DNA from: a virus
Length of the DNA stretch: 26,806 bases
IMG/VR virus record: IMGVR_UViG_3300037400_003307
Location: 1 to 26,806 of that record
Reading direction: 5' to 3' (one strand)
Under the pieces are notes generated by a model. That model was not told the origin of the DNA and did no database searches. It saw only the letters and a program-made list of their open reading frames with translations. How positions within the stretch are numbered: the first letter of the stretch is position 1; each line of letters starts with the position of its first letter. Positions 1 through 26,806 of this stretch are shown here, one piece after another. The position numbers and the translations under genes were made by a program.

Positions 1-127
1 TGATTTTGATACTGGTTTCATTGTAATCATAATTAAAGACCTCCTGACTCCTTATAAATAAGCTTCTAGTCAAGAGGTCTTTAACCTCAATAAAGTATTG
101 AAAATCCTAGTTGGTGGAGCGTACGAG
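1..127. repeat. Terminal direct repeat; identical to 26680-26806 (circular-assembly overlap). Also contains the integrase start codon region (nt 1-30 are the reverse complement of ATGATTACAATGAAACCAGTATCAAAATCA)
   Basis: Base-by-base comparison by eye: 1-127 (tgattttgatactgg...ggagcgtacgag) equals 26680-26806, an offset of 26,679. Confidence 0.9.
35..82 (-). promoter_or_regulatory. Imperfect 15-bp inverted repeat (hairpin) between the tRNA-like segment and the int start. Its 3' arm on the minus-strand RNA carries the int Shine-Dalgarno. It may also terminate or insulate tRNA read-through after integration
   Basis: AAAGACCTCcTGACT (35-49), 18 nt, AGTCAaGAGGTCTTT (68-82); 14 of 15 positions complementary. 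On the minus strand the hairpin ends ...AGTCAGGAGGTCTTTAATTATG (int ATG). The same element recurs at 26714-26761. Confidence 0.5.
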
Positions 128-180
128 GCTCGAACTCGTGACCTCCTGACTGCCAGTCAGACTACCACTAAATTGAGCTC
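112..180 (-). other. tRNA-Ala(GGC)-like 3' segment (degenerate pseudo-tRNA); putative attP core
   Basis: The reverse complement reads GGAGCTCAATTTAGTGGTAG-TCTGA CTGGCAG TCAGG AGGTC ACGAG TTCGAGC CTCGT ACGCTCC A CCA. The anticodon arm (loop CTGGCAG, anticodon GGC), the 5-nt variable loop, the T arm (TTCGAGC loop), the 3' acceptor strand with U70, discriminator A and CCA are all canonical. The D-stem 3' strand is missing and only 5 of 7 acceptor pairs form, so it is not a functional tRNA. This is typical of a phage attP that rebuilds the 3' half of a host tRNA. Confidence 0.55.
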
Positions 181-325
181 CGATCGCTTAAATTTCAACA
201 AGACAGCTTGACTGATTTAGGACTATGACCTCTTGACTCTGGGCATTATAGCATACAAATGGTTTGGAGACCAGCACAAAAATAAACCTCTGACTCAAGA
301 CGAAAGCCCTTAAATTTCAAGCATT

Positions 326-1366
326 TTATCCATTATTTTGTATTAAAGTATTAAGTTGCTTTTTAATGTAATCTATATCTTGTTTTATCTTTTCTTGGTC
401 CGTCATATAAGTTTTAGTAAAATCTAATCTCATATTTGATATCTCAATTACAGATTCCTCTGGTTGTTTTGGATATCTAGTTATCTTAACAACTCTTTGT
501 TTCTGTTTAATCCTCTTGAGCTTATCAACCAAGAAAATAGTATCGCCTAAATTAACTTCATCTCCAATAGAAGAAAGCTTTAGCTTATAACTGCATTTAG
601 GCTGTGAAAGTTCTTCAAGATATAATTCAGCAGCCTTCTTTAAATCTTCAGCATACTCATACTTTTCATCGACCCATACCTTTTCGATGTATTTGTTTGT
701 GTATGTATTGTTAGTAAGATATTTCTTTCCTCCATTAACTGAAGATATATTAAGTCCGTCTTTTCCATAAGGATAGAGGACAGTGCAATACTCATATGAA
801 GATGATTGTTTGGATAATTGTTGAAGCTTTAATTCATTTGAATAATAAGTTCCTATTTGTTTACCCATTCTACCTTGATCGTAAATAATCACCTTCTTAT
901 TTTTTGTATCAAACCAAAACTCTTGATTGTTATCTGCGGCAATGGTCTTGATCATCTCAAAGCCTGACTTATTAGCTTCTTGATATGTGATCATTGTCCT
1001 ATTTTCACTCTGATAATCAATAGACCAATCTGGAGCTTGGCTAATACAGTATTCATATCCTTGCTGTAGGTTTAGCCTATACAAGTCAAATACTTCAAAA
1101 TTGATTCCAGCCAATTCTTCATAATTAGCAATGCAGAATACTTTAAAGAAAGAGTTATCATTCATAATTACTTCTTTAATTATATAACTGTAGTCTGCGG
1201 TCTCGAGGTAGTTTTCCTCTACTAAATTGGCTAAATTTATGTCATTAACTGGGGCATAAAACTCTAGGTTTCTTGTCCCTGTGGCTAATTGTTCAATAGT
1301 ATGAATATCTTGGCAGGAATCTAAAAGCATTAAAAAACGCTTATTAGTATCATATATTTTGAACAT
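326..1366 (-). CDS. Tail-tip protein, Tal-like (phage minor structural protein / prophage-tail N-terminal region only; no C-terminal lysin or fibre extension)
   Basis: The N-terminus MFKIYDTNKRFLMLLDSCQDIHTIEQLATGTRNLEFYAPVNDINLANLVEENYLETADYSYIIKEV follows the pattern of Gram-positive siphovirus Tal N-termini. It is the last gene of the tail module and its ATG overlaps the upstream stop (TAATG). Confidence 0.6.
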   Translation of the reverse strand: MFKIYDTNKRFLMLLDSCQDIHTIEQLATGTRNLEFYAPVNDINLANLVEENYLETADYSYIIKEVIMNDNSFFKVFCIANYEELAGINFEVFDLYRLNLQQGYEYCISQAPDWSIDYQSENRTMITYQEANKSGFEMIKTIAADNNQEFWFDTKNKKVIIYDQGRMGKQIGTYYSNELKLQQLSKQSSSYEYCTVLYPYGKDGLNISSVNGGKKYLTNNTYTNKYIEKVWVDEKYEYAEDLKKAAELYLEELSQPKCSYKLKLSSIGDEVNLGDTIFLVDKLKRIKQKQRVVKITRYPKQPEESVIEISNMRLDFTKTYMTDQEKIKQDIDYIKKQLNTLIQNNG

Positions 1367-1716
1367 TAGATATACCTCGCATTGTATTCAATTGAAATAT
1401 TAGCCAATGATCCACTAGGGATTGTAATTTCATTTACTCCTGGCTGTAACTTTGGGAATTCCCATCCATTATAATGACTAAAATAATCTTGGTCATTGAG
1501 AAGGACTTGTCTGTTCTCTCCATCAATGACCAAGACATCATTAGCATGAACCCCACTTACCTCTATAGGTTCATCACTCAATCCAGTAATAGAAAGAGTG
1601 ATGAAATCTACTTGAGGAATTATAGTTACTAGGCAAGGAGCTGGAGCAGTTCCATTATTTGTAATAGTGAAACTGCTACCATTATTATCGAATTCAATTG
1701 GATAATAATTCTCCAT
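1366..1716 (-). CDS. Distal tail protein (Dit) C-terminal domain encoded as a stand-alone 116-aa protein
   Basis: FTITNNGTAPAPCLVTII...DVLVIDGENRQVLLN...WEFPKLQPGVNEITI...ISIEYNARYI matches the characteristic C-terminal half of Sipho_tail/Dit proteins (N.G.a.P.i.i ... d.l.iD.e...v..n ... fp.L.pG.N.i ... ry). It has its own strong RBS (GGGAGG, 5 nt before the ATG), 11 nt after the giant ORF stop. Confidence 0.65.
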   Translation of the reverse strand: MENYYPIEFDNNGSSFTITNNGTAPAPCLVTIIPQVDFITLSITGLSDEPIEVSGVHANDVLVIDGENRQVLLNDQDYFSHYNGWEFPKLQPGVNEITIPSGSLANISIEYNARYI

Positions 1717-1727
1717 ATTTGCCTCCC

Positions 1728-4700
1728 TTATTCAACTATTGATAAGTTATTAGCTGTTTTCTTAAGCCAACCTATACCAGTATAAATCCAATCATGATCT
1801 GCATACATTACTGAAATAGCTGTAATTCTATCTCCATAATGATATTGATCAATCAAGTAATTATTATCCTCTATTGGATACTGGTAATAATTTGTATTAA
1901 CTGCTACAACATAATTAGTTCCATCTTCAACGGTTCTCTTATGTGTATTAGAATATGGAATCCAACCTTCACCAGTAAAGTATGCGGCAGGAGTTCCATC
2001 ATTAGTATAAGAAGCTGTGCAATAAGAAGTTAATACCATTGGATCTGTGCCATAATCAATTTCACTACCAACATTTTGGAAATATGGATCTTTTTCGCAA
2101 CGAATTATTTGTCCATTAATGGATCTGATACCAATAGTTTGCTTTTCAAATGTATAACTTATACTTTCTACTGCATATCCAGAAGTAATAATAGTAGCAT
2201 TATTTTCTGGAAGCCATTGATCTCCTGTATATAACCAACTACCTGATACTAAATTACTTTGCGGATCAGCATATCTTAAAACAGGAATTATTGTATTTTG
2301 ACGAATAGTTCTTACTCTATCTGCATAAGTATCTGGCCAATTATAAGTTTGAGTATCTGTAGAAATTTTATAAATTGAATTTATAGTTTCATACTCAAAT
2401 TCTTTATTGGCAAAATAATTGTATGCATTATTTTCATTAATTTCTTGGTTTCTCAAGAAAATTAAATCTTTACCATCTCTAGTTGGTTGAAGAGTTCCAG
2501 AATAAGAACTACTTGGTTTAATAGCTCCATCTGTTAATCTATAACTTCTAGCAAAATCTCCAGTTAATAAATCAAATAATCCATTATCTGGCATTCTTTC
2601 CTCTTGACCATTCCAATTGTATCTCACTCCTTTTGGAACTGGAACCCAATAGTGAATCATCATAAAGTTTTCATAAGCTATATTGTCATAAATAATACCT
2701 GATAAGTGTTGATAATCATCAGAACCTCCAATAACACTATTGGAGTATGGGTCTGCGGTCATTAGATATCTATCCGCACTACCTCTACCTAATGCATATC
2801 CTTTTAAGTTAGTATTATCATACATACGTAACCAATCTGAATCATACATAGATTGAGCTTGATCTTTTAATAAATAATATCTAGGTTCTTTATTAAGATA
2901 TTCATTTCCAATTCCAAGAACTAAAGTAGGACTTGATCTAAAGTTAGAAAATGTGTAGAAATAACTATCTCCAACTTCTGGATTATCTAATAAAGTTTGA
3001 ATATTACCACCTCTAGTATCCCAAGTTTTAATATAAGGCGGTATATAACCAGTAACATGTGTATTAGCAGCTTCATTATAAAGATCAGTTAACCAGTAGA
3101 AACTACCATTCCAAGATTTACTATAATAATATGAATCTTCAGAAGTGTCTAAAGTATCACTTGTTTTAACAAATGCTTTAGTAATTTCTCCTGAAGTATA
3201 AATATCGTAAATTGGATGTTCTGTATATTCTCCTGGTTCAAAATAATTATATGTTCCTGCCATATTAATACTTATTCCACGATTCTTAATATAATGAGTT
3301 TCATTACTACCTCCAGTATAATGAATAGTGTAATAAGTGCCTAAATAATTAGGCTGATTCCATAGCTTATAAGTATTAGGATCAAATGGTGGATATACAA
3401 CATATTGTGTTCCACATCTGACTAATTCATTAAAAGTAAATTTAATATTATCTTTATTCCAAGGTCTTGGATTCCAAAGATAAACACCATCGCCAAAGCC
3501 TAAAGGTTTATATAAATTTTTATCAAATCCAAAATAATCCCATGTTAAAGTTAATTCAGTATCTCTATAAAGAGTTGGTTCAATATCAACTGTAATAGTT
3601 CCACCATACTCTGAAATCAATTCATAATAAGCAGTATCTAAAGCTCTAACATAACCTACAATTGTAGTATCATTACAGTCTTGAACTGGATAAAATTGTT
3701 GCGTCATTTCTCCAGTAATACGTAAAACAGTTTTACCATCGCAATCATAATTAGTAACTGATTGTGAAGAATCATCTGGTTCAGAATAAATAACTAAATA
3801 ATGAGGATCAACTGTCTTACGAGTTTTTAAATATCCATAGTCAATTTGTTCTTCCTGTTGCCAAGAAGTTTCTATGAATTTATCCCAATCTGGGTTCCAA
3901 TCTGATATTGAACAAGTAAATGCGGCAGTGCCTAAAAGATTTACTGGAATAGTTTGATACTGATAATATTTGCAAGTATAACTATAAATTGTTTCAGGAT
4001 ATACAAACTCAATTTCATGTAAATCTGAAAGATTCGCATAAGATAAAGTAAGTTCTGGAACTGAAGCTTGATTATGGAATCTCAATTTATACTGCTGTGG
4101 ATATATTCCAACAGAAGATAAGGTAGGGTCTGAAAAATCAACTTCATCTAAATGAATTACATCAATTCCTAATCCATTATAAAGTTTACCTGCTTGATTA
4201 AATGAAATATCTTCATTCTTAATCCAACTATCTTGTGCTGGACAATAACACCATAACCTATCTATAGTCATTTTAGTTATTGTAATTTCAGAACCAAAAG
4301 GAATAGTAGCTGTTTCTTGATCAGCTACATCATAATCTGGATTCTGACCTGGACCAGTAACAGGATCAGTTTGGTTTAATAAAATCCATCCTGCTTGGTA
4401 TTCATCAAGTCTACCCCATCCATTCCTTTCTTCAGTAATAGTGTAATTATCATTTTCAATAATCATTGCTAAAGTTGGGAACTTGCGGGCTGGGCCTCTG
4501 TGGATACCAGCAAACTTATTTCTAACATACACTTGATAAGGAATGAAGTAGTCATAATCTTCATCCTCATATAAGGCTGTATGATAGTGGTTGTAATATT
4601 TAATAGCTCCATTTGGATTTAATACAACCGCATCTAAATCACAATCTAAATAGTTAGGACTATCTTCATTGACTGTAATTAAAGTATCATCATAAGCTCC

Positions 4701-7700
4701 TTGTCTATAATATTCTACATATAATAAATTTGGAGCTTCTTGTTTAGTTAATTTATCATATACAACAATTGGTGATGGAGCATCAATGAATGCTTCTATA
4801 TCATCATTTTCAATTATTGATTCATCAAATACTAATCTTCCATGAGCAAAGTCTTCATCATAGAATAAGTCAACGTCTATACCAAGATCATCTAAAGAAG
4901 TAGCATTTTGAATATCTTCTAATGAATAGAATATATCTCTAGAACCCACTCTTACATTATCTTTGTAATAAACAACTGTCTTTGTGAAGTTTCTTAACTT
5001 ATAATAAATATTCATTGCTCCCATCTCGTAGATGTTTGCAAGTGTCATATTTTGGAAGCTTAAATCAGTATCTAAATCTAATAATCCATCTAAATGGAAA
5101 TCATCAGGTTTATAATCATTAAATTGAAGAATATCTTCAATCTCTTCATTTGATTCATTATACCAAGTAGGAACATTTACAAATTGATTTGTAATAAATG
5201 AGTTATCATAATCATAATAGTTAGCTACTGTTTTACCATAGATAGTTGGATCTGGAATACAATTAAGCGGTAATACTTCATTTGCCTCAATATTTTGCAC
5301 TACATGAACTGCAGAAGTTTGAGGACCTAAATAACTATCATATGTATAACTTCCACCTTTATTACTATTTCCAAAGAATATTTCAGTAACTAAATCAAAT
5401 AATCCATTAGCTGGCATTACATAATCATAAATTTGATCTCCTTCAGCTACTGGAATAAGATTTCTTACCAATCTATCTTGATCATAAATCTTAATACCCC
5501 AAATTGCACAACCTGTCATTTGCGGGAAAGCTGGAGCTTGGAAACTAGCATAAAGAATATTTCTAGTTTGAGATTTTGTTTCAAAGATTGGTTGACCACT
5601 TCCATCTGTTCCTGTCATTACTAGAGAAGTAGTAGTTACAGATGTTGAAAAATCGTGATCATATGGATTTCCTAATGCATGACTAGAAAGATTCATACTA
5701 CCAGAAACACCAAGATAAGGCATTACCGTTGGATTAAACGGCATGATATTTACATTACCTGTATCAGGATTTGTAGTTTGGAATAATGATAATGTTCCTT
5801 TTGGCTGACAAATATTTTCAAATAATGGATTATCTTCTGATTCATCAAAATTATATACAGTAGGAGTATTGCTATCTCCATCTCTCCACTCTGAACCATA
5901 ACTATTATAAGCGTCAAGAATCATTGTATATGGATTACCACAAGCAGTTCTTTGTCTAGTTGTTCCACCAGTGGCTCTATTTATACACCAGTTAGGAATA
6001 TGATCACATTCTGGAAGATTCTTTAATATTTGAGATTCTACATCGGTTACATAATATGAATTAATATTTTCTTCATCCGTTCTAGTAAATCCATAATTAC
6101 TATAAGCTTTAATAACATTATAGTTATCATCATAATCACTATATTTACCTTTTCTATAAACGGCTTGAATACCTGTAAATCTTAATTTTGGCTGTCCAGA
6201 AATTACTGTAGCAGCATCTCCTGCTCTATAATAAGCTTGTCCATCAATTGTTTGTGGGCCAGCAGCTGTATATACATAACCACCAGCTTCTGGAACTCTA
6301 CATCTAAATGCAAAACATCCAGAAGAAGAAGGACTTATAGCAGATCCTCTAGGAGTTCCATTTGCAGAAGCAGAAATACTAATTCCACCCCTATCTCCTT
6401 CTTCAGTTCCTAAATAAGCTTCACCTAAAGCTCCATAGTAACCGAAGAAATAAGTATAAGCAAAATCTTGATACATATATTGTGCTGTATTAGTTCCAAT
6501 ACCCCAAGGTCTTGCATAACCTTTTAACTCAACTCTTAATCTGCTTATATCTTTTGGTTTGTATCCTAAATCAATATAAGGAATTTTTCCTCCATAAAAA
6601 CGATCGCTTCCATGAATATCATTAAAGTAATCTTCATCATTAACTTCACCCCAATAAAGAACCTTTTGTTCATATGATAAAGATTCTGGATCATGAGGTT
6701 GAGTCATTTCTTCATAAACTATTGCTACTTCTTCAATTGCGGCCAAGTCAGCAAATGTAGAATATGATGTAGAACTATTTTGAATCTGTCCACCATTACA
6801 ATTTGCAGGTTTATATTTATTAACATATCCATTAGGAATAGTATCAAGAATATAAATTGCAACTCCTGGTTCAAAGTCATCTATATTAATTCCCCAAGTG
6901 GTAGAAGCAATAAGATTTTCAGTATTGACAGAGTTTTTATAATAATTTACATCTAAATAAACCGTATCTACTAGATATACAATGGTATACATTTCTTTAA
7001 GTTTACTTGGATTATCAATCCTTTCATCCATCTCATACCACTGATATGGTTCACCATCTTTATAATAATTAGCTGGTTTATGAAGATTTTTATTTATATA
7101 AAAATCAATATATTCGCCATCTCTAAATTGAGTTTCATCGAATGTTAAAACTTCAGAAGCTATAGTTTCATAAGTTCTAATTCCATAAACTTTTTTAATA
7201 TAGCGAATAATTGTTGTATATGTTTCAAGCTCTCTGTCTGCTGCTTTATAAACAATCTCATATGGAGAATGATCAACAACTCTAGTAAGAGAAACTTTTG
7301 TGCCAGGATATTCGAAATCTGTCTCGAACCCCTCTGGCTTATATTTATTAATACGAACTATATCTCCAAAAGTAGGAGCTTGATAGAAATCTCTTTCGGA
7401 GATTCCAATAGTTTCTTCTTCGATAAGTGTTCTAACACCAACATTATTTTCAGTGTAATATTTAACAGTAATTGTATTAGCTTGTTCTGGATAAACAACT
7501 GTATAAACGGCATTGTTCATATTGTCGAAATCCCAAACTAAAGTAGAAGCATCTACAATTTCACCAGGTTTATAGTATGATGGTTGATATAAATCAATTT
7601 GGAACTTTTCATAAGGATCAAATATTTGATCAACAAAGTCACTTGCTCTAAAATAATAAGCAACACTTTGCATGAAAGTTTCACCCTTATAATAATTTAC

Positions 7701-10589
7701 ATAGCAATGACCGATCTTATGATCTAAATTAGTATCAGTATATCTTTCATCATCTCTAATATTAAAACTGTTTTGTCCAGTAGCATCCTCAAAGAAAGTG
7801 CCTGTAATTTTATCATATAAGCAATTTGAAGGAGCAACTTGATCACCAATCTTATCATAGAACTGAACTGGAATATAATCTCTAATTAAAGTTCCATTAT
7901 AATAGATACGACAACTATAAATACCAATACCAGCTAAACCATCTTCATATGTTCCACCATTATTATTAGCAAACAAATATAATGGATAAGGCATCTGTGC
8001 GGCCTCGCTTGCCATTGTGTTACTATAAGTGAAGACCGCAGTAGAATAACCAGGTCTTTCAATAGCATAAATACCAGAATTTGCTGAAAAACCAATTGCA
8101 GCATCTTCAGTTTGAACCAAAGTGTCAGAATAAAGTCCTGCTTTTGCTTCATATGTATTCACACCTGTAAGATTCTCACCATATTGTGTCTGGTTGTTAA
8201 ATCTCATAAAATATGATCCTAATATTGAACTAGAACCAAATAAATAACCATAACCTGCATTTACATTGTGTAAAGGAGCATCCTCATCTACTCTTTCGCA
8301 CTCCATTACTACAGTTAATTTGCTCATATCTTCAACTGAAACACCAGTATTAATATAAGCATGATTCATTGTCCAATTAGGATGCAAAGATTCATAATCA
8401 CCTAAATCATTATGTTCAAGGAAAAGGAATCTATGTGGATAATCTAAATCTCCACCTGGTTCCATAACAGTTTCATAAACTACATTTAAACTTGTTAAAT
8501 TTCTTAATGATTCAAAATTAACAGGTCCATGATACTGAAGTTCGCCATCATCACAATAACTAGGTTTATATGCATTTATATTAAATCCTAAATCATATAA
8601 AGTTGTATCAACCGTAAAATCAATAACCTTATATGATATTGAACTACTTCCAATCCAATTTAAATCATCTACATCATCTGTATAATATCTAACTGGAGTG
8701 ATAAAAGTAGAAGCCATATAAACTACTGTATAATTTGATTCAATTTCATCAAATGTGAGAAGGGCAGTTGAACTATAACCATCTAAAATACCATTCTCAT
8801 AGTAATCTGGCTTATAAAGATTCATATTAAATACATCTTTAAGTCTAATACCATTTATAGTATCAGCTTCATTAATAGTAATGATTGATGTATTAATTGT
8901 TGCAAAAGTAGAAGATAACTCTTGCTTATATTTTAAAATAATATTTTTTGTGCGGGCAGCTACTATTTCCTCAAAATAAATGAGAATAGGAGAAGCTTGA
9001 GTCAAACCCGCTAGTGTTACAGGGCCATCATATGAAAGAAGAGCGTCAAATTGAAAACCTTCTGGTCTATAACTAGAAATTGGAATAATATCACTTAATA
9101 CTGGATCTCCAATAAAATCTAACGCATTAATAGTAAGTTCTGTTACTACAGGTTCTTCATCTGGCACATGGTATTGAACCTGAATAGTATAATCAATTGG
9201 TTCATAATAAACCTGTAATACTCCACTAGAAATAACAGCATCATAACTATCATAAATACTGCTATTATACAAAACTCCATTCTGATACTCTGAAGTATGA
9301 TATTTATTTAAATCTAAATTAATATCAGAAAGATCAAAACTTTCTTCGTATGATTCTTTATAAACAGTTGAAAGTGTAGTTGTAGATAATCTATACCAGC
9401 CTGGATAAACTCCAATATAATATTCTACAAAAACAATATTCGTAGATTTAGCATATTTAATTTCATAACTAGATTCTACGCCGTCATAATCAACCAATTC
9501 TGTAGCACTGTGATCTTCAATATAACCTTCATTGTAGTATGTTGCTGTTGGTCTATAAGCATTTACATTAAGAATTTCTCCAAGAGTCATTCCATCTGTA
9601 AAATCACTTTGTTTAAATACTTTTGTAGTAGCTCCAACAGTGGAGAAAGAACCATTATCGTCTTCTTTTTTATAAGTTACGGTTACATTTTTAGTTAAAT
9701 CGTTTTCCAATCTATCATAAAAAACATAAATTGGACTTACAGCTAATAAGTTTTCTACAGTTAAAGCTCCTGTAAAAGCTATTCTGCCAAGATAACCTTC
9801 TGGCTTATAACTTTTAATATCAACTAATTGTCCAATAGACTGAATGTTCTGTAACTGCGGATAAGTAAACTGAATATTGTTAGTAAACATATCCTGATAA
9901 ACACCAGTGCCGTTATCCATGTAATAATTAATAGTTAAGTTATAAGCTATAGGAGCATAATTAATAATAAGAGTTCCTAATGACTGTAAGTTTTCATAAG
10001 TAATTTCTCTGCCGCCAAGATTTGTAGCAATACCTTCTTGATAATAATTAGGTCTATACTTATTTGTTTCAATACCTATAGAAGCTAATGTATTATTAGT
10101 ATCCTCAAACATTGCTGCTCGAATAGTAACACTATCAGTTGATAATAAAGTTGTTGAGTTCTGATAATATAAAAGAGTTAGTTTAAAACTGCTTGTATAA
10201 TTTGCATCAGTTGTGTAAACCTCTCTTTCACCTTTTGCATAATCAGAAGTAAAACTATAATCAACTATAAAATTACCATTCTTTAATCTTCTTGGACTAG
10301 CAGAACCAATCATACTAACATCAAAATAATAATCTAGATCATCAAACTTTAATGTAGCTTTCTTAAGCATATTAGTAAGTTTGCTAATTCTTAAGAAAGC
10401 ATCATCTTCGTCTTGAGCAAGCACTAAAAAAGACAGTTTAATGTTTTTAAAACTGTCTTGCTGTCTTATATAAGTTGGTTGAATATCTCCATCTAACCAA
10501 GCTTCTTTTGTGCTTACTTGATTACTTGAAATGACTCTATCATATAATTTAATGCCGAGACTGCTTAATTCAATATTATTAATTAACAT
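1728..10589 (-). CDS. Giant (2,953 aa) modular tail-tip adhesin: Dit N-terminal ring domain fused to ~14 beta-rich ~83-aa repeats, three lectin/jelly-roll-like modules and ~6 SH3b-like modules
   Basis: Uninterrupted 8,862-nt ORF. The ATG is preceded by GAGGAGG and overlaps the upstream stop (TAATG). aa 1-125 resemble the Dit N-domain (LSSLGIKL..., DDLDYYFDV..., GNFIVDYSFTSDYAKG). The recurring [NS]xY[KR]P..[YF] motif and the SH3b-like GW...GW(I/L) motifs are detailed in the findings. Confidence 0.85.
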   Translation of the reverse strand: MLINNIELSSLGIKLYDRVISSNQVSTKEAWLDGDIQPTYIRQQDSFKNIKLSFLVLAQDEDDAFLRISKLTNMLKKATLKFDDLDYYFDVSMIGSASPRRLKNGNFIVDYSFTSDYAKGEREVYTTDANYTSSFKLTLLYYQNSTTLLSTDSVTIRAAMFEDTNNTLASIGIETNKYRPNYYQEGIATNLGGREITYENLQSLGTLIINYAPIAYNLTINYYMDNGTGVYQDMFTNNIQFTYPQLQNIQSIGQLVDIKSYKPEGYLGRIAFTGALTVENLLAVSPIYVFYDRLENDLTKNVTVTYKKEDDNGSFSTVGATTKVFKQSDFTDGMTLGEILNVNAYRPTATYYNEGYIEDHSATELVDYDGVESSYEIKYAKSTNIVFVEYYIGVYPGWYRLSTTTLSTVYKESYEESFDLSDINLDLNKYHTSEYQNGVLYNSSIYDSYDAVISSGVLQVYYEPIDYTIQVQYHVPDEEPVVTELTINALDFIGDPVLSDIIPISSYRPEGFQFDALLSYDGPVTLAGLTQASPILIYFEEIVAARTKNIILKYKQELSSTFATINTSIITINEADTINGIRLKDVFNMNLYKPDYYENGILDGYSSTALLTFDEIESNYTVVYMASTFITPVRYYTDDVDDLNWIGSSSISYKVIDFTVDTTLYDLGFNINAYKPSYCDDGELQYHGPVNFESLRNLTSLNVVYETVMEPGGDLDYPHRFLFLEHNDLGDYESLHPNWTMNHAYINTGVSVEDMSKLTVVMECERVDEDAPLHNVNAGYGYLFGSSSILGSYFMRFNNQTQYGENLTGVNTYEAKAGLYSDTLVQTEDAAIGFSANSGIYAIERPGYSTAVFTYSNTMASEAAQMPYPLYLFANNNGGTYEDGLAGIGIYSCRIYYNGTLIRDYIPVQFYDKIGDQVAPSNCLYDKITGTFFEDATGQNSFNIRDDERYTDTNLDHKIGHCYVNYYKGETFMQSVAYYFRASDFVDQIFDPYEKFQIDLYQPSYYKPGEIVDASTLVWDFDNMNNAVYTVVYPEQANTITVKYYTENNVGVRTLIEEETIGISERDFYQAPTFGDIVRINKYKPEGFETDFEYPGTKVSLTRVVDHSPYEIVYKAADRELETYTTIIRYIKKVYGIRTYETIASEVLTFDETQFRDGEYIDFYINKNLHKPANYYKDGEPYQWYEMDERIDNPSKLKEMYTIVYLVDTVYLDVNYYKNSVNTENLIASTTWGINIDDFEPGVAIYILDTIPNGYVNKYKPANCNGGQIQNSSTSYSTFADLAAIEEVAIVYEEMTQPHDPESLSYEQKVLYWGEVNDEDYFNDIHGSDRFYGGKIPYIDLGYKPKDISRLRVELKGYARPWGIGTNTAQYMYQDFAYTYFFGYYGALGEAYLGTEEGDRGGISISASANGTPRGSAISPSSSGCFAFRCRVPEAGGYVYTAAGPQTIDGQAYYRAGDAATVISGQPKLRFTGIQAVYRKGKYSDYDDNYNVIKAYSNYGFTRTDEENINSYYVTDVESQILKNLPECDHIPNWCINRATGGTTRQRTACGNPYTMILDAYNSYGSEWRDGDSNTPTVYNFDESEDNPLFENICQPKGTLSLFQTTNPDTGNVNIMPFNPTVMPYLGVSGSMNLSSHALGNPYDHDFSTSVTTTSLVMTGTDGSGQPIFETKSQTRNILYASFQAPAFPQMTGCAIWGIKIYDQDRLVRNLIPVAEGDQIYDYVMPANGLFDLVTEIFFGNSNKGGSYTYDSYLGPQTSAVHVVQNIEANEVLPLNCIPDPTIYGKTVANYYDYDNSFITNQFVNVPTWYNESNEEIEDILQFNDYKPDDFHLDGLLDLDTDLSFQNMTLANIYEMGAMNIYYKLRNFTKTVVYYKDNVRVGSRDIFYSLEDIQNATSLDDLGIDVDLFYDEDFAHGRLVFDESIIENDDIEAFIDAPSPIVVYDKLTKQEAPNLLYVEYYRQGAYDDTLITVNEDSPNYLDCDLDAVVLNPNGAIKYYNHYHTALYEDEDYDYFIPYQVYVRNKFAGIHRGPARKFPTLAMIIENDNYTITEERNGWGRLDEYQAGWILLNQTDPVTGPGQNPDYDVADQETATIPFGSEITITKMTIDRLWCYCPAQDSWIKNEDISFNQAGKLYNGLGIDVIHLDEVDFSDPTLSSVGIYPQQYKLRFHNQASVPELTLSYANLSDLHEIEFVYPETIYSYTCKYYQYQTIPVNLLGTAAFTCSISDWNPDWDKFIETSWQQEEQIDYGYLKTRKTVDPHYLVIYSEPDDSSQSVTNYDCDGKTVLRITGEMTQQFYPVQDCNDTTIVGYVRALDTAYYELISEYGGTITVDIEPTLYRDTELTLTWDYFGFDKNLYKPLGFGDGVYLWNPRPWNKDNIKFTFNELVRCGTQYVVYPPFDPNTYKLWNQPNYLGTYYTIHYTGGSNETHYIKNRGISINMAGTYNYFEPGEYTEHPIYDIYTSGEITKAFVKTSDTLDTSEDSYYYSKSWNGSFYWLTDLYNEAANTHVTGYIPPYIKTWDTRGGNIQTLLDNPEVGDSYFYTFSNFRSSPTLVLGIGNEYLNKEPRYYLLKDQAQSMYDSDWLRMYDNTNLKGYALGRGSADRYLMTADPYSNSVIGGSDDYQHLSGIIYDNIAYENFMMIHYWVPVPKGVRYNWNGQEERMPDNGLFDLLTGDFARSYRLTDGAIKPSSSYSGTLQPTRDGKDLIFLRNQEINENNAYNYFANKEFEYETINSIYKISTDTQTYNWPDTYADRVRTIRQNTIIPVLRYADPQSNLVSGSWLYTGDQWLPENNATIITSGYAVESISYTFEKQTIGIRSINGQIIRCEKDPYFQNVGSEIDYGTDPMVLTSYCTASYTNDGTPAAYFTGEGWIPYSNTHKRTVEDGTNYVVAVNTNYYQYPIEDNNYLIDQYHYGDRITAISVMYADHDWIYTGIGWLKKTANNLSIVE

Positions 10590-10831
10590 TAATAGCCTCC
10601 TCTTTGGTTTTTTAAAGCTAATTCATTTGATATACCTTCAATTGACATTCCTTCAGTTGATGAATCATTAATATAAGCTTGATTTGCAATATAAGCATTC
10701 ATTTGATTTTCATTAAACCCCATATTATTAGATAATTCATGAACAGAATTTAATAAATCTGTTCCTGCGGATAAATTTTCAGAAGGATATAAACTTTTTC
10801 TTTCAAGTTCTTGACTTATATTTTCTTCCAC
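10589..10831 (-). CDS. Hypothetical 80-aa protein in the position normally held by the tape measure gene (GTG start)
   Basis: GTG start at 10831, 9 nt after AAGGAGG. Its stop overlaps the giant ORF's ATG (TAATG). No recognisable motif. Confidence 0.5.
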   Translation of the reverse strand: MEENISQELERKSLYPSENLSAGTDLLNSVHELSNNMGFNENQMNAYIANQAYINDSSTEGMSIEGISNELALKNQRGGY

Positions 10832-10835
10832 AATA

Positions 10836-11348
10836 TTAATCCTCCTTAATATTTAAAGATTGAAAAGTTAATTTTCTTTCTTCACTACTTCCAATTTGAT
10901 ACCCTTTATCTTCAATTAGCCTAATATCAGCTTTTAAATTATTTCTTTGCTTTAAAGCAATTAAAAAAAGATTTGCATCAATTTCTTTTCTTCGTTTAAA
11001 ACCTTCATATGCCATATTTATATCTTGAAGTGTCATTTGATAAAAATCACAAGGAGCTATACCCATTTCTCCAACGATTCTGGTGTATAGCTCCTCGATT
11101 TCTATAGGAGTTTTTGAAAGAAAATTATGATTTATATAATTATCAAGCAAATTTATTTCAGATTCAGAACACTTATTAAGAAGTGCTTTTACATCTTGAA
11201 ATGTCATATTTGGTTGATCTGTAATGAAACCAGAAAAATAAATTAATAATTTTTCATCTTCATCTAAATATAACAAATCATTAAACATTATTAGCCCTTT
11301 AAGCCCAAAACGGAAACTATATATAGCACCGTCTTTGCTTAAAATCAT
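10836..11348 (-). CDS. Tail assembly chaperone (gpG-like), putative
   Basis: Lies immediately downstream of the major tail protein with an ATGA overlap. Size, acidic character and the motif ...GIAPCDFYQMTLQDINMAYEGFKRRKE... are typical of Gram-positive siphovirus chaperones. Confidence 0.5.
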   Translation of the reverse strand: MILSKDGAIYSFRFGLKGLIMFNDLLYLDEDEKLLIYFSGFITDQPNMTFQDVKALLNKCSESEINLLDNYINHNFLSKTPIEIEELYTRIVGEMGIAPCDFYQMTLQDINMAYEGFKRRKEIDANLFLIALKQRNNLKADIRLIEDKGYQIGSSEERKLTFQSLNIKED

Positions 11349-11734
11349 ATTATATTTAATTCTCCATTTCCTAATAACTGCATATTATATTTAAATTGCC
11401 CGTTATATCCAGCAGATACAGGGAAATTAGTTATAATTGCATTACCTTTATATTTTTTATTATTAATTCTAACTTCAACCTCAATGTCAGCATTATTCAT
11501 AAAAGCTTCTTCCAAAAGGTCATAAGATTTAGAATTAATTATATATAACCCAGAACATGCAATACTCCAAGTTTTTAAGCCTGACAATCTTTCTTGCCAG
11601 TCTCCATTAATTTGATTAGTAATATCAATAGCAGAGGCAGAGCGATTCAGACTAATATTTTGCTGTCCTGCAACAGCTTTATCATTTATATAAAGGATTA
11701 CATCAATCCCCTGTCTGACTTGTTGTTTCATCAT
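11345..11734 (-). CDS. Major tail (tube) protein, TP901-1/phi13-like, putative
   Basis: 129 aa, located between the tail-terminator-like gene and the chaperone. The pattern ...GLKTWSIACSGLYI...FKYNMQLLGNGEL fits. RBS GAGGAGG. Confidence 0.55.
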   Translation of the reverse strand: MMKQQVRQGIDVILYINDKAVAGQQNISLNRSASAIDITNQINGDWQERLSGLKTWSIACSGLYIINSKSYDLLEEAFMNNADIEVEVRINNKKYKGNAIITNFPVSAGYNGQFKYNMQLLGNGELNII

Positions 11735-12122
11735 CTTCCTCCTCTAATAATCCAGAAGTAAGAATAAATCTATAAGAAAGCACTCCATGTTTGCGGACAG
11801 GACCTGTTTCTTTATCGCCCAGAACAACCATACTGTTTAAGCCAGCTGCGGTGATTTCTGGACACGTTGCCCGCAAATCTTGTAGATGATTTAATATATC
11901 TTCATTAATAAGAATTATTTCTTTCTCACCATTATATTGGGAAAATACATCTACAATGATTGTAACAATATCATATCTTATATCAAAACTTACTGCTGAT
12001 TGATATCCTCCAGTTCTTATCATTATCCAAGGAAAATTTTCTTGATAAGTTCCATTATCAGTGCAGTTATATCCTAGATTTTTAATCAACTGAAGGAATT
12101 GAGTTTTAATTTTTTCTAACAT
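11703..12122 (-). CDS. Tail terminator / tail completion protein, putative
   Basis: 139 aa directly upstream of the major tail protein. The pattern ...NFPWIMIRTGG...VDVFSQYNGEKE... resembles tail-terminator or minor-capsid-type proteins. RBS GGGGAGG. It overlaps the next gene by 32 nt. Confidence 0.45.
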   Translation of the reverse strand: MLEKIKTQFLQLIKNLGYNCTDNGTYQENFPWIMIRTGGYQSAVSFDIRYDIVTIIVDVFSQYNGEKEIILINEDILNHLQDLRATCPEITAAGLNSMVVLGDKETGPVRKHGVLSYRFILTSGLLEEEDDETTSQTGD

Positions 12123-12337: not shown

Positions 12338-13000
12338 TTATGTAATTATAACGTTTGGCGTATATACAAAACCACCGCCACCACCAGATCCAGCTTTTTC
12401 AATTCTATCGACTCTTTCAGAAAAACTTTGACCTACCATAACTTGAACTGTTGTAGTAATAAATGCAGTTATAAAAGAGGCTACTATAGCTCCTGCCATA
12501 GCTGCTAATGAACCACCTATGCCCATAGCGCCAGGTAATCCTTGAGCATTTAATCCTGCTTGAGCATTTCCATATTTATCTGCTTGTTGAGCGGCTAAAG
12601 CTTGAGCTTGTTGTTCCATAGCCTCTTCTTCTGCCAATATTTGTTCTTCTAATTGAGCGTCTTCTTCAGCTTGACTCCATAAAGGTTCTGCTGCGGCCAA
12701 AGCTTCTTCTAATGCTGGAGTAAAATAAGGTTGTGCAGCTTGACACCAAGTCCCATATTCTGGATACTGCGCATATTCACAATCAGTTTCCACCTCACAA
12801 AATGAATTGCCATCAGTATCTGCGCTCAATGTTGATTGTAAATATCCAGTATCTACTGGAACAAGATCATCTGCTACAGATAAAAAAGTATCTACAAATA
12901 CATCACAACCTGGACCATAATCTGGACGCACATTATATGTTTCAGTAGCTTCAATATAACCAAAGTCACTTATTACATCAAAACTTGCGTATAAACCCAT
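12338..13000 (-). CDS. HK97 gp10-like head-tail joining protein with an unusual C-terminal acidic coiled-coil plus Gly-rich hydrophobic extension
   Basis: LVPVDTGYLQSTL is the hallmark gp10-family motif (PVDTG.L..S). aa ~100-145 are an E/A/Q-rich helix. aa ~150-190 (GAMGIGGSLAAMAGAIVASFITAFITTTVQVMVG) are hydrophobic and Gly-rich, followed by GSGGGGG. Confidence 0.6.
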   Translation of the reverse strand: MGLYASFDVISDFGYIEATETYNVRPDYGPGCDVFVDTFLSVADDLVPVDTGYLQSTLSADTDGNSFCEVETDCEYAQYPEYGTWCQAAQPYFTPALEEALAAAEPLWSQAEEDAQLEEQILAEEEAMEQQAQALAAQQADKYGNAQAGLNAQGLPGAMGIGGSLAAMAGAIVASFITAFITTTVQVMVGQSFSERVDRIEKAGSGGGGGFVYTPNVIIT

Positions 13001-13680
13001 TATATCTTTTCCTTATATATACAAAACAAATACGTCTGTTCAGAAGCACCATATAACCCATACCAAGAAGATGCATTTGCTGGTTTTAAAGTTATTGTTG
13101 TTGATGATCCTCCAACACTAACTGTCATATTTATATTTGATCCACCTTTAACTTTAGTAACAGTTCCATTATCATATTTATATATGGCCAATGGAGACGC
13201 TGGAGTTCCACTAGGATAAGTTGCAGAACCACTACTTCCTAATGAAACTGGAGTGCATACTAAATAAAAATAATATGAAGCTTTAGGCAATGTAAAAGTC
13301 ATAGAAGCTGAAGTGCTTTTTGATGTAAATGTTCTATAATAAAAACTTCCTTTTCTTACTGCACCGTCTTTCCATGAATAAATATCCATTGCTGGACCTT
13401 CATAAGTTCCTTTTACCCCCAAAATATTAACATTCTTTTTTATTTTAGATTCAACGATATCTGAATCAGATACTTTAGCTGTAGCATAATTTGTAACATC
13501 TATTGTATCCATGCTTGTAATATATTTCATTCCACTTGGAGTAATACCACCACCTGTTGTAATTCCATTTACTGCAGTAGCCATTTCAGCCACCGTCATA
13601 GTGTCACTATCTCCAGTTTTAGCTCTTATAGCATCACCAAGAGCAGTTAAGTCACTAGTATTTTCTAAACTATATGCCAT
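13000..13680 (-). CDS. Hypothetical structural (fibre-associated) protein
   Basis: N-terminal LTALGDAIRAKTGDSDTMTVAEMATAV is a motif I associate with phage fibre or receptor-binding accessory proteins. TAATG coupling on both sides. Confidence 0.4.
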   Translation of the reverse strand: MAYSLENTSDLTALGDAIRAKTGDSDTMTVAEMATAVNGITTGGGITPSGMKYITSMDTIDVTNYATAKVSDSDIVESKIKKNVNILGVKGTYEGPAMDIYSWKDGAVRKGSFYYRTFTSKSTSASMTFTLPKASYYFYLVCTPVSLGSSGSATYPSGTPASPLAIYKYDNGTVTKVKGGSNINMTVSVGGSSTTITLKPANASSWYGLYGASEQTYLFCIYKEKI

Positions 13681-14081
13681 TAATAACTACCTCCTACTGT
13701 TACAGATTCCCAACTATAAATTGGGGTTAAATTAACTCCAGAAAGAGTGCATTTTAAAAAATATGTTCCAGCATTAGATGGAGCAGAAGGAAGACCAGTT
13801 ACTGTCGATCTAATTTCATTATTAGCATCTATACTAATACCAGTTCCAGCACTATATGTTGTATCAGTATCAGTAGCTGAAATAACGCCATTGCTAATGG
13901 TTATAGAAGAACCATCAACTTTAACTCCTCCAAGAGTAGAAGTAGAAGCGGTAGGCAGACTATATTGAGAAGGCATATTTGTATTAATATACTGCTTAAT
14001 TAACCGAGCAAATCTTTCAAGCCCTCTTCCATCAATATAAATGTTGTCATATTGACTTCCTATACCTTGTTCTCCTGCCAT
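13680..14081 (-). CDS. Fibre-like protein (133 aa)
   Basis: STLGGVKVDGSSITISNGVISA and YSAGTGISID motifs are typical of phage fibre shafts. The second motif recurs in the 537-aa fibre. Confidence 0.5.
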   Translation of the reverse strand: MAGEQGIGSQYDNIYIDGRGLERFARLIKQYINTNMPSQYSLPTASTSTLGGVKVDGSSITISNGVISATDTDTTYSAGTGISIDANNEIRSTVTGLPSAPSNAGTYFLKCTLSGVNLTPIYSWESVTVGGSY

Positions 14082-14100
14082 AATAATCCTCCTTCCTCAA

Positions 14101-14637
14101 TTAAGAAGCTGATGCAGCACTCCAAATTGAATCAATTTCAGAATTAGTAAGGGTGTCAATAGACATAGAAGTATCTCCAATAATCTCCCAAGCATTATTA
14201 ACATAAGCATATTCTGTATATACTTGATTAGTTCCAGAAGTAGATTTAGGAACTAAATAGATTTTTGAAGTTGAAATATTACTTGAAGGTAATGTTTGAA
14301 CTATTTCAAAACTAAAGGTTCCAATACCACTAATTGCAGATGTAATATCTGACATTGTAGCAACCTTATTTGAAGATGCATTATAAGCTGTATTAAATAC
14401 CAAAGTGTCTTGCTTTCCACTTACGTCTGGAATATCGCTCATTGTAGCTACTTTATTAGTAGATGAATCATAAGCTGTATTAAAAACAAGAGCATCTTGC
14501 TTACTAGCTAAAGCACTAGCATCAGCCTTACTGGCTAAATCACTTGTGCTTGCCTTACCAGCTAAAGCAGTTTTAATCAAACTACTAAAATAAACTAATT
14601 TATCACCAGTTAAAACTTTATTATCATATGTTGCCAT
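14101..14637 (-). CDS. Fibre-like protein with a 29-aa tandem repeat
   Basis: KQDALVFNTAYDSSTNKVATMSDIPDVSG / KQDTLVFNTAYNASSNKVATMSDITSAISG (nt ~14329-14502). It shares the IVQ.LP...IY.V...Y.EY.Y.N.AWE.IG module and the C-terminal LTNS(D/E)I..IW motif with the 537-aa ORF. Confidence 0.55.
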   Translation of the reverse strand: MATYDNKVLTGDKLVYFSSLIKTALAGKASTSDLASKADASALASKQDALVFNTAYDSSTNKVATMSDIPDVSGKQDTLVFNTAYNASSNKVATMSDITSAISGIGTFSFEIVQTLPSSNISTSKIYLVPKSTSGTNQVYTEYAYVNNAWEIIGDTSMSIDTLTNSEIDSIWSAASAS

Positions 14638-14649
14638 AATAAAATCTCC

Positions 14650-19890: not shown

Positions 19891-20133
19891 TTAATCCCAC
19901 AAAAGTGGTGGAGTCGAATTAACATCAGCTCCCTCAAAAATGTTATTTCGAACTTCCTCTGCCAACGAACTAGCTGCAATATCAGATTGGTCTAAATTAT
20001 TTGTAACCCATTCTAAACCACGATACATTCCTAAACAAAACCACATCATATTATCGTCTTGTTTTGCTCCAAAATATTTTGCTGCTTGAGTAGCTAATTC
20101 TTGGTTTTTAATAATTTGTGCTTTTCTTTTCAT
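19891..20133 (-). CDS. Hypothetical protein (80 aa)
   Basis: ORF between the portal and MuF-like genes. Weak RBS (AAAGGA). No motif recognised. Confidence 0.45.
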   Translation of the reverse strand: MKRKAQIIKNQELATQAAKYFGAKQDDNMMWFCLGMYRGLEWVTNNLDQSDIAASSLAEEVRNNIFEGADVNSTPPLLWD

Positions 20134-23487: not shown

Positions 23488-23937
23488 TTATTTAGAATCG
23501 GCCATAATCTCATCTAAAGTAATTGTTTTTGCAGTTCTTTGTATCTTATATCCTTTATAATTCTCTTCTTTTGGTATTTGATAGTTTAAAGGCGGCATAT
23601 ATTTCCTTATTAACTCTCCTTCTTTAATACCAATTTCTTCTTGAATCTTTTCTTCATCTATCTCTTTAGCTTTATATAATAAGTCAAACTCAACAATCAT
23701 TTTTCTTCCAACAGCCTCTCTTATTACATCATACTTGTGTGAGTGATACTCTCTTATTGATTGATCTGTTAAGTTCATTATATGAAAAGCAATTCTTGTT
23801 TTAACATCATTAGACTTACCTATATAAACCATTTTCCCTCCAATAGAGATAGAATATATTCCTGCACAGTTATATTTGCCAGGAGCTAAAGCTTCTATAG
23901 CATCTATCTGTGCTTGATAAACTTTTTGATTATACAT
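23488..23937 (-). CDS. GIY-YIG nuclease (free-standing homing-endonuclease-like)
   Basis: GIYSISIGGKMVYIGKSNDVKTRIAFH supplies the GIY and YIG motifs plus the conserved Arg. GELIRKYMPPLN supplies the conserved Glu and Asn. Confidence 0.75.
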   Translation of the reverse strand: MYNQKVYQAQIDAIEALAPGKYNCAGIYSISIGGKMVYIGKSNDVKTRIAFHIMNLTDQSIREYHSHKYDVIREAVGRKMIVEFDLLYKAKEIDEEKIQEEIGIKEGELIRKYMPPLNYQIPKEENYKGYKIQRTAKTITLDEIMADSK

Positions 23938-24172: not shown

Positions 24173-24364
24173 CTATTCAGGTAGACCTGGTTTCTTTCCT
24201 TTCTTAATATCATCTTTCTCTTCAAGATTATAAGTCTTTTTAAGAGCTATACGGATTAAATTAGATACAGTCATTCCTCTCTCCTGGACATATTCACAAA
24301 CTGTATCATAAAACTCTTCCGTGCATTTCATCCCAAGAGTCTTTCTTAAATATTTATTCTCCAT
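24173..24364 (-). CDS. Ribbon-helix-helix (CopG/Arc-like) DNA-binding protein, putative
   Basis: KTLGMKCTEEFYDTVCEYVQERGMTVSNLIRIALKK fits a beta-strand, helix, helix pattern (..s.s.liR.Al). GGAGG RBS. It overlaps the HNH gene end by 11 nt. Confidence 0.5.
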   Translation of the reverse strand: MENKYLRKTLGMKCTEEFYDTVCEYVQERGMTVSNLIRIALKKTYNLEEKDDIKKGKKPGLPE

Positions 24365-24854: not shown

Positions 24855-24973
24855 TTGTCTTTTCTCCTTTTTCAAAAAAAATTTTTTTCGAGAGTTTTCC
24901 TCTCACTAAAACTTGAAAAGTGGAAAAGATCGCCAAATCGGTTTTGTCCAAAAAGTTAGAAAAATTTTTAGAT

Positions 24974-25812: not shown

Positions 25813-26709
25813 CTATATTAAGTTTTGTAATGGAGATAAAGAGTCATAATTCTTCATCAATTCAGTATCGTAAATGCGGCAATAGTGTTTTGTCATATCA
25901 AGAGTCGAATGGCCCAAGATTCTTTGTAGATCAAATGCGTTTCCACCTGCCCGCAAATACCTTTCAGCAAATGAATGCCTAAACAAATGAATTGAAGTCT
26001 TTTCAACACCTCTTTTTCTGTTGTATCTTCGAATGGCTTCAGACAAACCATTCTCTGTCATTTGTTCTTCATTCTCTTTTGGAAAGAGAAAATCAGTTTG
26101 AGAGCCTCCTCTTACCTTTAAATAATCCTTCAATATTTTCTTCATCTCCTGGCACAAAGGCACAATTTGAGAAGAACCATTCTTTGTATGTCTATAACTT
26201 ATTATCCCTTCATCCAGATTGATATCTTGAACTCTTATATTGCGGATAGTAGCAGCTCTGCAACCAGAGTTAAGCAATAGATTAATGATGACCCAATTCC
26301 TATATTCACAGAAAGTGCAAGTTTTCCGATCGGGTCTCTTTAAAAGCTTAACAAGTTCTTCATCAGTGTAAGTTGTTTTGATTGACTCCTGGCCTTTATA
26401 TTTCTTGATTTTAAGATCGGTTAATCCTTCATCATTACACCAAGAAAGAAAAGATTGGAGTGTTGCTGTGTAGCTTCTAATTGAATTAGGAGACAAACCC
26501 CTATTTCTCAAAGTAAGAACAATATTTTCTAAATCTCTTTTGGAAAGCTCTTCAATTTGCTTTTCCACAGCTAATTCCTTGCTAATTGTATGGAACTGCT
26601 GTGAATATGTCTGAAGAGTTTTATTCCTTATTCCATTTGCTCTTTTAGAGTTAATAAAATCTTCAAAAGTTTCCTCGACTGATTTTGATACTGGTTTCAT
26701 TGTAATCAT
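25813..26709 (-). CDS. int: Tyrosine site-specific integrase (XerC/D-like phage integrase family)
   Basis: SAM-like N-domain (TFEDFINSKRANGIRNKTLQTYSQQF). Catalytic signature SGCRAATIRN (Arg), HLFRHSFAERY (H-x-x-R), LGHSTLDMTKHY (His/Tyr). It sits next to the tRNA-like attP. GGAGG RBS. Confidence 0.9.
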   Translation of the reverse strand: MITMKPVSKSVEETFEDFINSKRANGIRNKTLQTYSQQFHTISKELAVEKQIEELSKRDLENIVLTLRNRGLSPNSIRSYTATLQSFLSWCNDEGLTDLKIKKYKGQESIKTTYTDEELVKLLKRPDRKTCTFCEYRNWVIINLLLNSGCRAATIRNIRVQDINLDEGIISYRHTKNGSSQIVPLCQEMKKILKDYLKVRGGSQTDFLFPKENEEQMTENGLSEAIRRYNRKRGVEKTSIHLFRHSFAERYLRAGGNAFDLQRILGHSTLDMTKHYCRIYDTELMKNYDSLSPLQNLI

Positions 26710-26806
26710 AATTAAAGACCTCCTGACTCCTTATAAATAAGCTTCTAGTCAAGAGGTCTTTAACCTCAATAAAGTATTGAAAATCCTAGTTGGTGGAGCG
26801 TACGAG
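26680..26806. repeat. Second copy of the 127-nt terminal overlap (equals nt 1-127)
   Basis: Identical by eye to nt 1-127. Confidence 0.9.

Follow-up and report, generated by a model that had tools for sequence, protein, structure and literature searches.

We analysed a viral DNA of 26,806 nucleotides (nt), positions 1-26,806 of IMG/VR record IMGVR_UViG_3300037400_003307 (this whole stretch is called the window), which encodes a siphovirus-type tail in which the place of the tape measure protein (TMP) gene, between the tail assembly chaperone and Dit genes, is taken by an open reading frame (ORF) of 80 amino acids (aa; 10589..10831, minus strand). Read from the genes alone, this ORF has, in our judgement, a slightly better than even chance of encoding a drastically shortened TMP that would nucleate a tail of one or two tube rings, and it is here treated as a candidate miniature TMP. 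An initial annotation of the same DNA had offered three options for the missing gene, namely a miniature ruler, which would give a stub tail of about 10-15 nm, assembly without a ruler, and a TMP supplied in trans by a helper. We favour the first of these on the basis of a C-terminal motif, the position of the ORF, its coupling to the Dit gene, a chaperone with a T domain and a length range of 50-188 aa, and find the ruler-free and in-trans options less favoured.

The two ends of the window are exactly identical over 127 nt (1..127 = 26680-26806, no strand assigned), which marks a circular assembly; the window is therefore a complete circular element, with a unique length of 26,679 bp. On this complete genome, no ORF matched a TMP family in searches with Pfam and PHROG profiles, and the original statement that no TMP lies elsewhere in the window thus holds for the entire element. 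A TMP beyond the window was ruled out, the contig being circular and complete and relatives of 24-27 kb carrying the same content. A TMP hidden in the giant ORF that follows the 80-aa ORF was ruled out as well, since the N-terminus of the giant is the Dit N-domain and no helix-rich or hydrophobic stretch was found in it (helix-favouring residues reach at most 50% in any 50-aa window, with a mean of 29%).

The 80-aa ORF starts with a GTG codon, 8 nt downstream of a Shine-Dalgarno sequence read from the DNA (AAGGAGGA, 10840..10847, minus strand), and its TAA stop codon shares bases with the start codon ATG of the giant gene (TAATG). The giant has GGAGG as its Shine-Dalgarno sequence (10596..10600, minus strand), which lies within the last codons of the 80-aa ORF, where it encodes the G-G of the ending ...QRGGY; the last 4-5 residues are therefore constrained at the nucleotide level too, and the same arrangement was found in all relatives. 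By our own estimate, an 80-codon open frame would arise by chance with a frequency of about 0.1%, stops making up about 8% of random codons. AlphaFold predicted four helices and no globular fold (predicted local distance difference test score, pLDDT, 61). An exhaustive phmmer search with the 80-aa protein alone returned itself, one true homolog and two repetitive long proteins, which were discounted, and blastn of the region against phage genomes gave nothing useful. We rejected the idea that a G-T frameshift adds the ORF to the chaperone as its T part, because its frame with respect to the chaperone differs across relatives (+1, +1, -1, +1), because it has its own ribosome-binding site, and because a T domain is already present in the 170-aa chaperone ORF.

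A profile search with the small proteins recovered 190 family members, all of them 50-87 aa long (most commonly 55-56 aa) and none long. Their alignment revealed a conserved N-terminus, MxYNELLNKxS (DLLNSVHEL in the subgroup of the window), a variable, S-, A-, K- and T-rich middle, and a conserved C-terminus, TTSTLLNKIGLEVQRQGG, which in the window reads ISNELALKNQRGGY. If the slot instead held a decaying remnant, a non-functional ORF kept open only by the ribosome-binding site of the giant, the overlap of its last residues with that Shine-Dalgarno sequence and the high divergence of its sequence would be expected, but the ORF is open in all 190 recovered proteins, complete contigs of the clade cluster at 24-27 kb, and the slot ORF carries a ribosome-binding site of its own. 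Moreover, both the N-terminal MxYNELLNK and the motif residues upstream of the Shine-Dalgarno sequence are preserved despite synonymous codon changes, and such changes within the motif indicate selection at the protein level. We consider such a remnant very improbable.

The case for descent from a TMP comes from the C-terminus of the small protein. In siphophage tails of solved structure, the cavity of Dit and Tal houses the extreme C-terminal end of the TMP. For the small protein this end reads ...LLNKIGLEVQRQGG, and for the TMPs of relatives ...FMNKLGLVLQRA. Among TMPs of the outgroup, that is, phages with homologous Dit and Tal proteins, the ends read ...ISNELAIRSRRRR in L026, ...LSNNTALKTRRMR in L017, ...DYMLNQAALVTQRRRG in L018 and ...DYFMNKLGLVLQRA in L059, the last being the closest canonical relative found (IMGVR_UViG_3300035495_000042, 20 kb). 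In an anchored BLOSUM comparison with the C-termini of 360 gene-like ORFs, the top three were TMPs for both variants of the motif (Mann-Whitney p = 1e-5 and 4e-5), and removal of the residues encoded by the Shine-Dalgarno sequence left p = 4e-4 and 3e-4. We also built a hidden Markov model (HMM) from 46 non-redundant outgroup TMPs, taking the last 24 aa of each. With this model, the slot ORF ranked 1st of the 331 six-frame ORFs of the window (E 0.075), and the slot ORFs of 15 family loci ranked 1st to 4th of 4,174 ORFs (best E 0.002), in both cases aligned at the C-terminal end. Finally, when the family profile was compared by hhalign with one made of TMP C-termini, their last 27 columns aligned from end to end (P = 3e-4, probability 39%). 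A profile of the C-terminal 20 aa of the family gave nothing useful among outgroup ORFs, in a search without power. Each of these tests is modest because the motif is short. Taken with the position of the ORF, they form a coherent case for TMP descent, and we conclude with moderate confidence that the C-terminus of the slot protein is homologous to that of the TMPs of phages with homologous Dit and Tal.

Several results weigh against this interpretation. The shared motif spans just 10-14 residues, the last of which overlap the Shine-Dalgarno site of the giant. The statistical support is modest (HMM, best E 0.002; hhalign, probability 39%), and the outgroup TMPs include some that are closely related to one another. 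The N-termini of the small proteins showed no convincing similarity to those of TMPs (p = 0.09 for the common motif and an uncorrected 0.02 for the motif of the window). Neither the 80-aa protein nor its relatives matched any Pfam or PHROG profile at E up to 1, and BLAST of the slot protein against the 986-aa TMP of L059 found no match. The 80-aa protein has no hydrophobic segment (Kyte-Doolittle maximum -0.08), its AlphaFold model is of low confidence, and the slot protein diverges fast, with 33-37% identity where Tal has 93% and the chaperone 71%. The 188-aa slot protein of the deepest member of the clade, L079, does not end in the shared C-terminal motif. Finally, no suppressor tRNA was found in any of the loci of the clade in which TAG is recoded, including one 26.6-kb contig covered end to end, an observation that bears on a possible helper (see below). 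In how it would work, the protein comes closest to a TMP; given that length, profile matches and hydrophobic segment all differ from those of a TMP, we call it a TMP-derived miniature and not a standard TMP.

The gene order around the slot is fixed in a deep and abundant clade. More than 250 Tal homologs, all of about 340 aa, were found on metagenome contigs topping out at about 25-27 kb, and the same was true of chaperone homologs. In every short-Tal relative examined (Tal of about 340 aa) that has the slot on its contig, about two dozen loci with Tal identities from 93% down to 32%, a homologous ORF lies between the chaperone and Dit genes, as in the window. Wherever the genes are on the contig, the order is tube protein, chaperone of 160-188 aa, small ORF, giant of 2,844-3,182 aa, Dit C-domain of 115-134 aa, and Tal. 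By a scan of IMG/VR and automated ORF chains, 18 of 18 short-Tal loci carry the giant and a separate Dit C-domain, and the slot ORF measures 51-76 aa wherever it is on the contig, with the exception of L079. In this locus (226-792), the slot protein is helical, rich in K, R, E and Q, and, at 188 aa, between the small proteins and normal TMPs in size. The search of related contigs proposed in the initial annotation thus recovered the same gene order in every short-Tal relative with the slot on its contig. A one-off deletion was ruled out by this conservation, and a deletion in a defective prophage, which that annotation had named among the outcomes that would undo its reading, was not borne out.

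Outside the clade, TMPs have their usual size. Upstream of a long Tal, in 61 loci from IMG/VR, the largest ORF measures 952 aa in the median, and the sole exceptions are three contigs broken near Tal. We read the ORF chains of about 30 canonical loci; in nearly all, a TMP of 550-2,105 aa is followed by a one-piece Dit of 224-308 aa. The same size range of TMPs holds for prophages in GTDB genomes of Clostridia and Bacilli and for one phage contig from GenBank, with Dit in one piece wherever it was examined. No close integrated copy of the element turned up when GTDB species genomes were scanned, the best Tal identity being 35%.

What changed in the clade can be read from L059, its canonical sister phage. 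This phage encodes homologs of the tube protein of the window (37.5% identity, E 2e-36), the terminator (E 2e-10), the neck protein, a 65-aa ORF and a fibre-like protein, as well as the chaperone T domain and Dit and Tal proteins of the same family, in a similar order. Five linked changes, in TMP, chaperone, Dit, Tal and neck protein, separate the clade from it. The TMP of L059 has 986 aa, compared with 50-87 aa in the clade, where a short helical protein with the extreme C-terminal motif would be all that is left of the TMP.

The second change concerns the chaperone. In L059 (5570-6195), a 107-aa G ORF ends just past an AAAAAAA slip site and T lies in the -1 frame, whereas in the window G-like and T-like parts are fused in frame in a single ORF of 170 aa (10836..11348, minus strand), and a -1 frameshift making two products is not the case here. 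The 170-aa protein gave no significant Pfam or PHROG match at default cut-offs, while several of its homologs matched TAC_12 and TAC_6 of Pfam weakly. Its AlphaFold model (pLDDT 82.7) had as best Foldseek matches phage tail assembly proteins, including GT-type products (E 8e-5), and its residues 87-168 match the T ORF of L059 (37.5% identity, E 3e-15). A scan of viral contigs with the single chaperone protein and a search of its profile against PDB sequences gave nothing useful. As the structural model and the T-ORF match indicate, the ORF is a real tail assembly chaperone that carries a T domain. In lambda, many copies of G coat the long TMP, and the rare GT product links the TMP to the tube protein; the loss of the frameshift fits a very short client. 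Upstream of the chaperone gene lie those of the major tail (tube) protein, of 129 aa (11345..11734, minus strand; PF06199, E 7e-21; phrog_1407, E 9e-28), and of the tail terminator or completion protein, of 139 aa (11703..12122, minus strand; phrog_176, E 3e-7; weak PF11367).

The third and fourth changes concern Dit and Tal. L059 has a Dit of 238 aa in one piece, whereas in the clade Dit is split and carries an insert of about 2,800 aa. The ORF downstream of the slot, which had been described as a Dit-like giant, encodes 2,953 aa (1728..10589, minus strand), and this description applies to its residues 1-135, the Dit N-domain; the remainder is an insertion of about 2,800 aa made of beta-rich modules, and the C-domain is encoded apart. 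More specifically, residues 1-135 match residues 1-136 of the L059 Dit (38% identity, E 7e-23), and the N-terminus matches positions 41-183 of phrog_33 (E 2e-3). The rest holds at least 12 modules marked by a YKPxxY signature and gave no match in Pfam. After the giant come a stop codon, a ribosome-binding site and a separate ORF of 116 aa for the Dit C-terminal, galectin-like domain (1366..1716, minus strand; PF22768, E 8e-12; phrog_33 positions 174-278, E 6e-21), which matches residues 131-238 of the L059 Dit (E 2e-10). The two proteins thus cover adjoining parts of the PHROG Dit profile, and the split is kept in all relatives. Instead of one polypeptide of about 230-260 aa, the clade has a Dit with a recognisable N-terminal ring domain that, by these matches, is split by an insertion of about 2,800 aa and a stop codon. 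Evolved Dits of Lactobacillus and Lactococcus phages carry carbohydrate-binding insertions. The Dit of the clade resembles them in having an insertion of a receptor-binding type and differs in that about 2,800 aa stand between the domains and the C-domain is a separate polypeptide. Tal, the tail tip protein (346 aa; 326..1366, minus strand; PF06605, E 9e-34), consists of the N-terminal structural domain only; it is about 340 aa long in the clade, compared with 713 aa in L059 and 571-1,941 aa in canonical relatives.

The last of the five changes is found in the neck. The neck protein (HK97 gp10-like, Neck1; 12338..13000, minus strand) matches PF04883 and phrog_5 on its N-terminal part. In L059 it has 108 aa and no extension, whereas in the clade it reaches about 200-220 aa. 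The C-terminal extension of about 110 aa (residues ~105-220) comprises an acidic coiled coil, a Gly-rich stretch and a transmembrane-like helix and ends in ...VIIT, and it is conserved in six relatives, including this end. No other Kyte-Doolittle value in the genome exceeds the 1.93 reached at residue 163, and this is the only transmembrane-like segment in it. The TMP-like character that had been noticed in the C-terminal half of this ORF is real and conserved in relatives. BLAST of the neck extension and of the small proteins against outgroup proteins gave nothing useful.

This extension also lends substance to another explanation, in which the slot protein would be a TMP-derived initiator or plug docked in Dit/Tal without acting as a ruler, and the length of the tube would be set otherwise, by a fixed stoichiometry, by the neck extension reaching down the channel, or by the giant Dit arms serving as an external scaffold. 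A plug could explain why only the two ends of the small protein are conserved while its middle is of low complexity and fast-evolving, and why its length varies between 50 and 87 aa without visible matching change in other tail genes; the neck, furthermore, gained its conserved coiled-coil and transmembrane extension in exactly this clade, and the tube protein of SPP1 self-polymerises without partners (PMC8718954). However, a variable spacer between conserved ends is also what a ruler would look like, the clade has kept a T-domain chaperone, which in known systems serves TMP-guided growth of the tube, and there is no sign that either the neck extension or the arms of Dit run along the tube. 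We regard a plug of this kind as unlikely, but as a serious competitor.

Our preferred reading, a miniature ruler, can be cast as an assembly pathway. In known phages, the TMP, its chaperones, Dit and the tip proteins form an initiator complex, and the tube grows along the TMP (PMC8718954). In the clade, the small protein, as a trimer bound by the in-frame G-T chaperone, would nucleate the Tal trimer and the hexamer of Dit N-domains. Polymerisation of the tube protein would then stop where the small protein ends. With about 0.15 nm for each residue, a length of 55-87 aa would give about 8-13 nm, which at about 3.8-4 nm per ring would correspond to Dit plus one or two tube rings, and the 188-aa protein of L079 to about five rings. 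The terminator would cap the tube and the stub would join the head; upon infection, the small protein would be expelled as a channel plug. Receptor binding, and perhaps wall penetration too, would have shifted to six arms of 2,800 aa inserted into Dit, and, more speculatively, the membrane-active hydrophobic segment may have shifted from the TMP to the extension of the neck protein. We put forward tentatively, at somewhat less than an even chance, the resulting picture of a clade of temperate elements whose stub tail retains tube protein, terminator, chaperone, Dit and Tal, with a ruler of 50-87 residues, which would be the smallest known, with Dit arms that recognise the host and a neck that carries the membrane segment, intermediate between long and short tails.

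To our knowledge, every characterised long non-contractile tail has a TMP of at least about 200 residues. The slot protein resembles siphophage TMPs (lambda gpH, SPP1 gp18, TP901-1 TMP) in its position between chaperone and Dit, its translational coupling to Dit and its predicted helical, non-globular nature, and differs from them in having no hydrophobic or Gly-rich segments, lytic domain or profile match, and in its length of 50-87 aa compared with 550-2,105 aa in relatives. Among the characterised tails of this type, the shortest is that of the Rhodobacter capsulatus gene transfer agent (RcGTA), with a TMP of 216 aa (Rcc01694) and five tube rings plus Dit (PMC7296036, PMC8718954); the thickness of its tube ring is 38.3 Å (PMC8718954), and its TMP has been described as a form between TMPs and the tail needles of podoviruses (PMC7296036). 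The likeness lies in a short ruler and a short, non-contractile tail, both predicted for the clade; the difference is that the protein of the clade is 2.5-4 times shorter and that the element packages its own genome and occurs widely as circular contigs of about 26 kb. We take the tube protein of RcGTA to belong to the same Pfam family as that of the window.

As to the rest of the element, the minus strand holds all substantial genes, the G+C content is about 28%, and one gene, that of the 2,953-aa giant, fills one third of the length. Family searches gave the order integrase, HNH endonuclease, GIY-YIG endonuclease, small and large terminase, portal, Mu-F-like minor head protein, scaffold, capsid, head-tail adaptor, two small connectors, four fibre-like genes, gp10-like neck protein, 65-aa ORF, terminator, tube, 170-aa chaperone, 80-aa ORF, giant, 116-aa ORF and 346-aa Tal, followed by a degenerate tRNA-like segment before the integrase. 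All ORFs of the initial annotation were recovered on the minus strand at the coordinates it had given, and the order it had proposed was correct. The tyrosine integrase (25813..26709, minus strand; PF00589, E 3.5e-32; phrog_1) is separated from Tal by a gap in which the tRNA-like segment lies (115..181, minus strand); it scored 25.2 bits with the Rfam tRNA model, against a gathering score of 29, and ARAGORN called no tRNA there. This segment is probably the core of an attachment site, restoring the 3' end of a host tRNA. Directly upstream of the small terminase gene are two homing-type endonucleases (HNH/NUMOD4, 24354-24875; GIY-YIG-like, 23488-23937). The four fibre-like genes, between the head-completion and neck genes (13000-16263), include one of 537 aa with collagen and YadA-head-like repeats, and may encode head or neck fibres.

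In L011 (16692-16931) and L014, a protein of 72-79 aa with two hydrophobic helices follows the portal gene and could be a holin; the window ORF in the same position after the portal (19891-20133) is not hydrophobic. L011 and L014 also have no integrase, and encode a Rep-like protein of 210-236 aa with two winged-helix domains (L011 12140-13115; L014 12221-12853), followed by about four copies of the iteron-like repeat AAAAT(T)ATCAAGTTACG, which suggests plasmid-like replication. In the window, the integrase and the tRNA-like attachment segment stand at this position instead. TAG is a sense codon in most relatives, with 28-47 in-frame TAGs per locus, read as Gln in the source proteins; this applies to L002, L003, L005-L009, L014, L015, L042-L057 except L044, and L079, whereas the window, L001, L010, L011, L041 and L044 use the standard code. 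An alternative genetic code that would merge ORFs of the window was ruled out, given that there are no in-frame stops in it.

The lack of a suppressor tRNA in recoded members is a hint that they rely on another phage, and the tRNA need not be all that this phage could provide. The clade could then consist of satellites, for which a co-resident helper would provide a full-length TMP, lysis functions and, in the recoded members, TAG decoding, while the 80-aa protein would be an accessory or adaptor. The small genome with almost only structural genes fits such a dependence, as does the result that no endolysin or clear holin was recognisable in the whole window by family searches and hydrophobicity. 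On the other hand, a foreign TMP would have to fit a chaperone, tube protein, terminator, Dit and Tal that are all the element's own, and the slot protein itself bears the docking motif of a TMP C-terminus. Relatives also have either their own Rep-like protein with iteron-like repeats or an integrase. Known satellites shed structural genes rather than keeping nearly all of them. A satellite of the PICI, capsid-forming PICI or P4-like kind would be short of most virion genes, and the window encodes terminase, portal, scaffold, capsid, connectors, tube, chaperone, Dit and Tal. We consider a satellite rather improbable.

The clade may correspond to the 'Topaz' group of recoded gut phages, with which it was compared by description only. 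These phages have genomes of 22 ± 3 kb, circles of 24 kb and TAG recoded in structural genes, with an integrase beside a tRNA attachment site and a Firmicute host of the Oscillospiraceae (Borges et al., bioRxiv 10.1101/2021.08.26.457843). A missing or miniature TMP is not discussed in the text of that paper (bioRxiv 10.1101/2021.08.26.457843). Phrase searches of the literature, which were limited and give weak evidence of novelty, turned up no account of a tail module of the siphovirus type whose TMP is miniature or absent.

In conclusion, the candidate miniature TMP bears on the control of tail length by a protein ruler, a textbook case of molecular measurement. With proteins of 50-87 aa, of 188 aa in L079 and of 986 aa in L059, nature provides a gradation of lengths on which the ruler model could be tested at its lower limit, and the lost chaperone frameshift could show what the frameshift is for. 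The clade is common in metagenomes and has other oddities, such as the split giant Dit and TAG recoding without a suppressor tRNA, and it could show a route from a long-tailed to a short-tailed virion.

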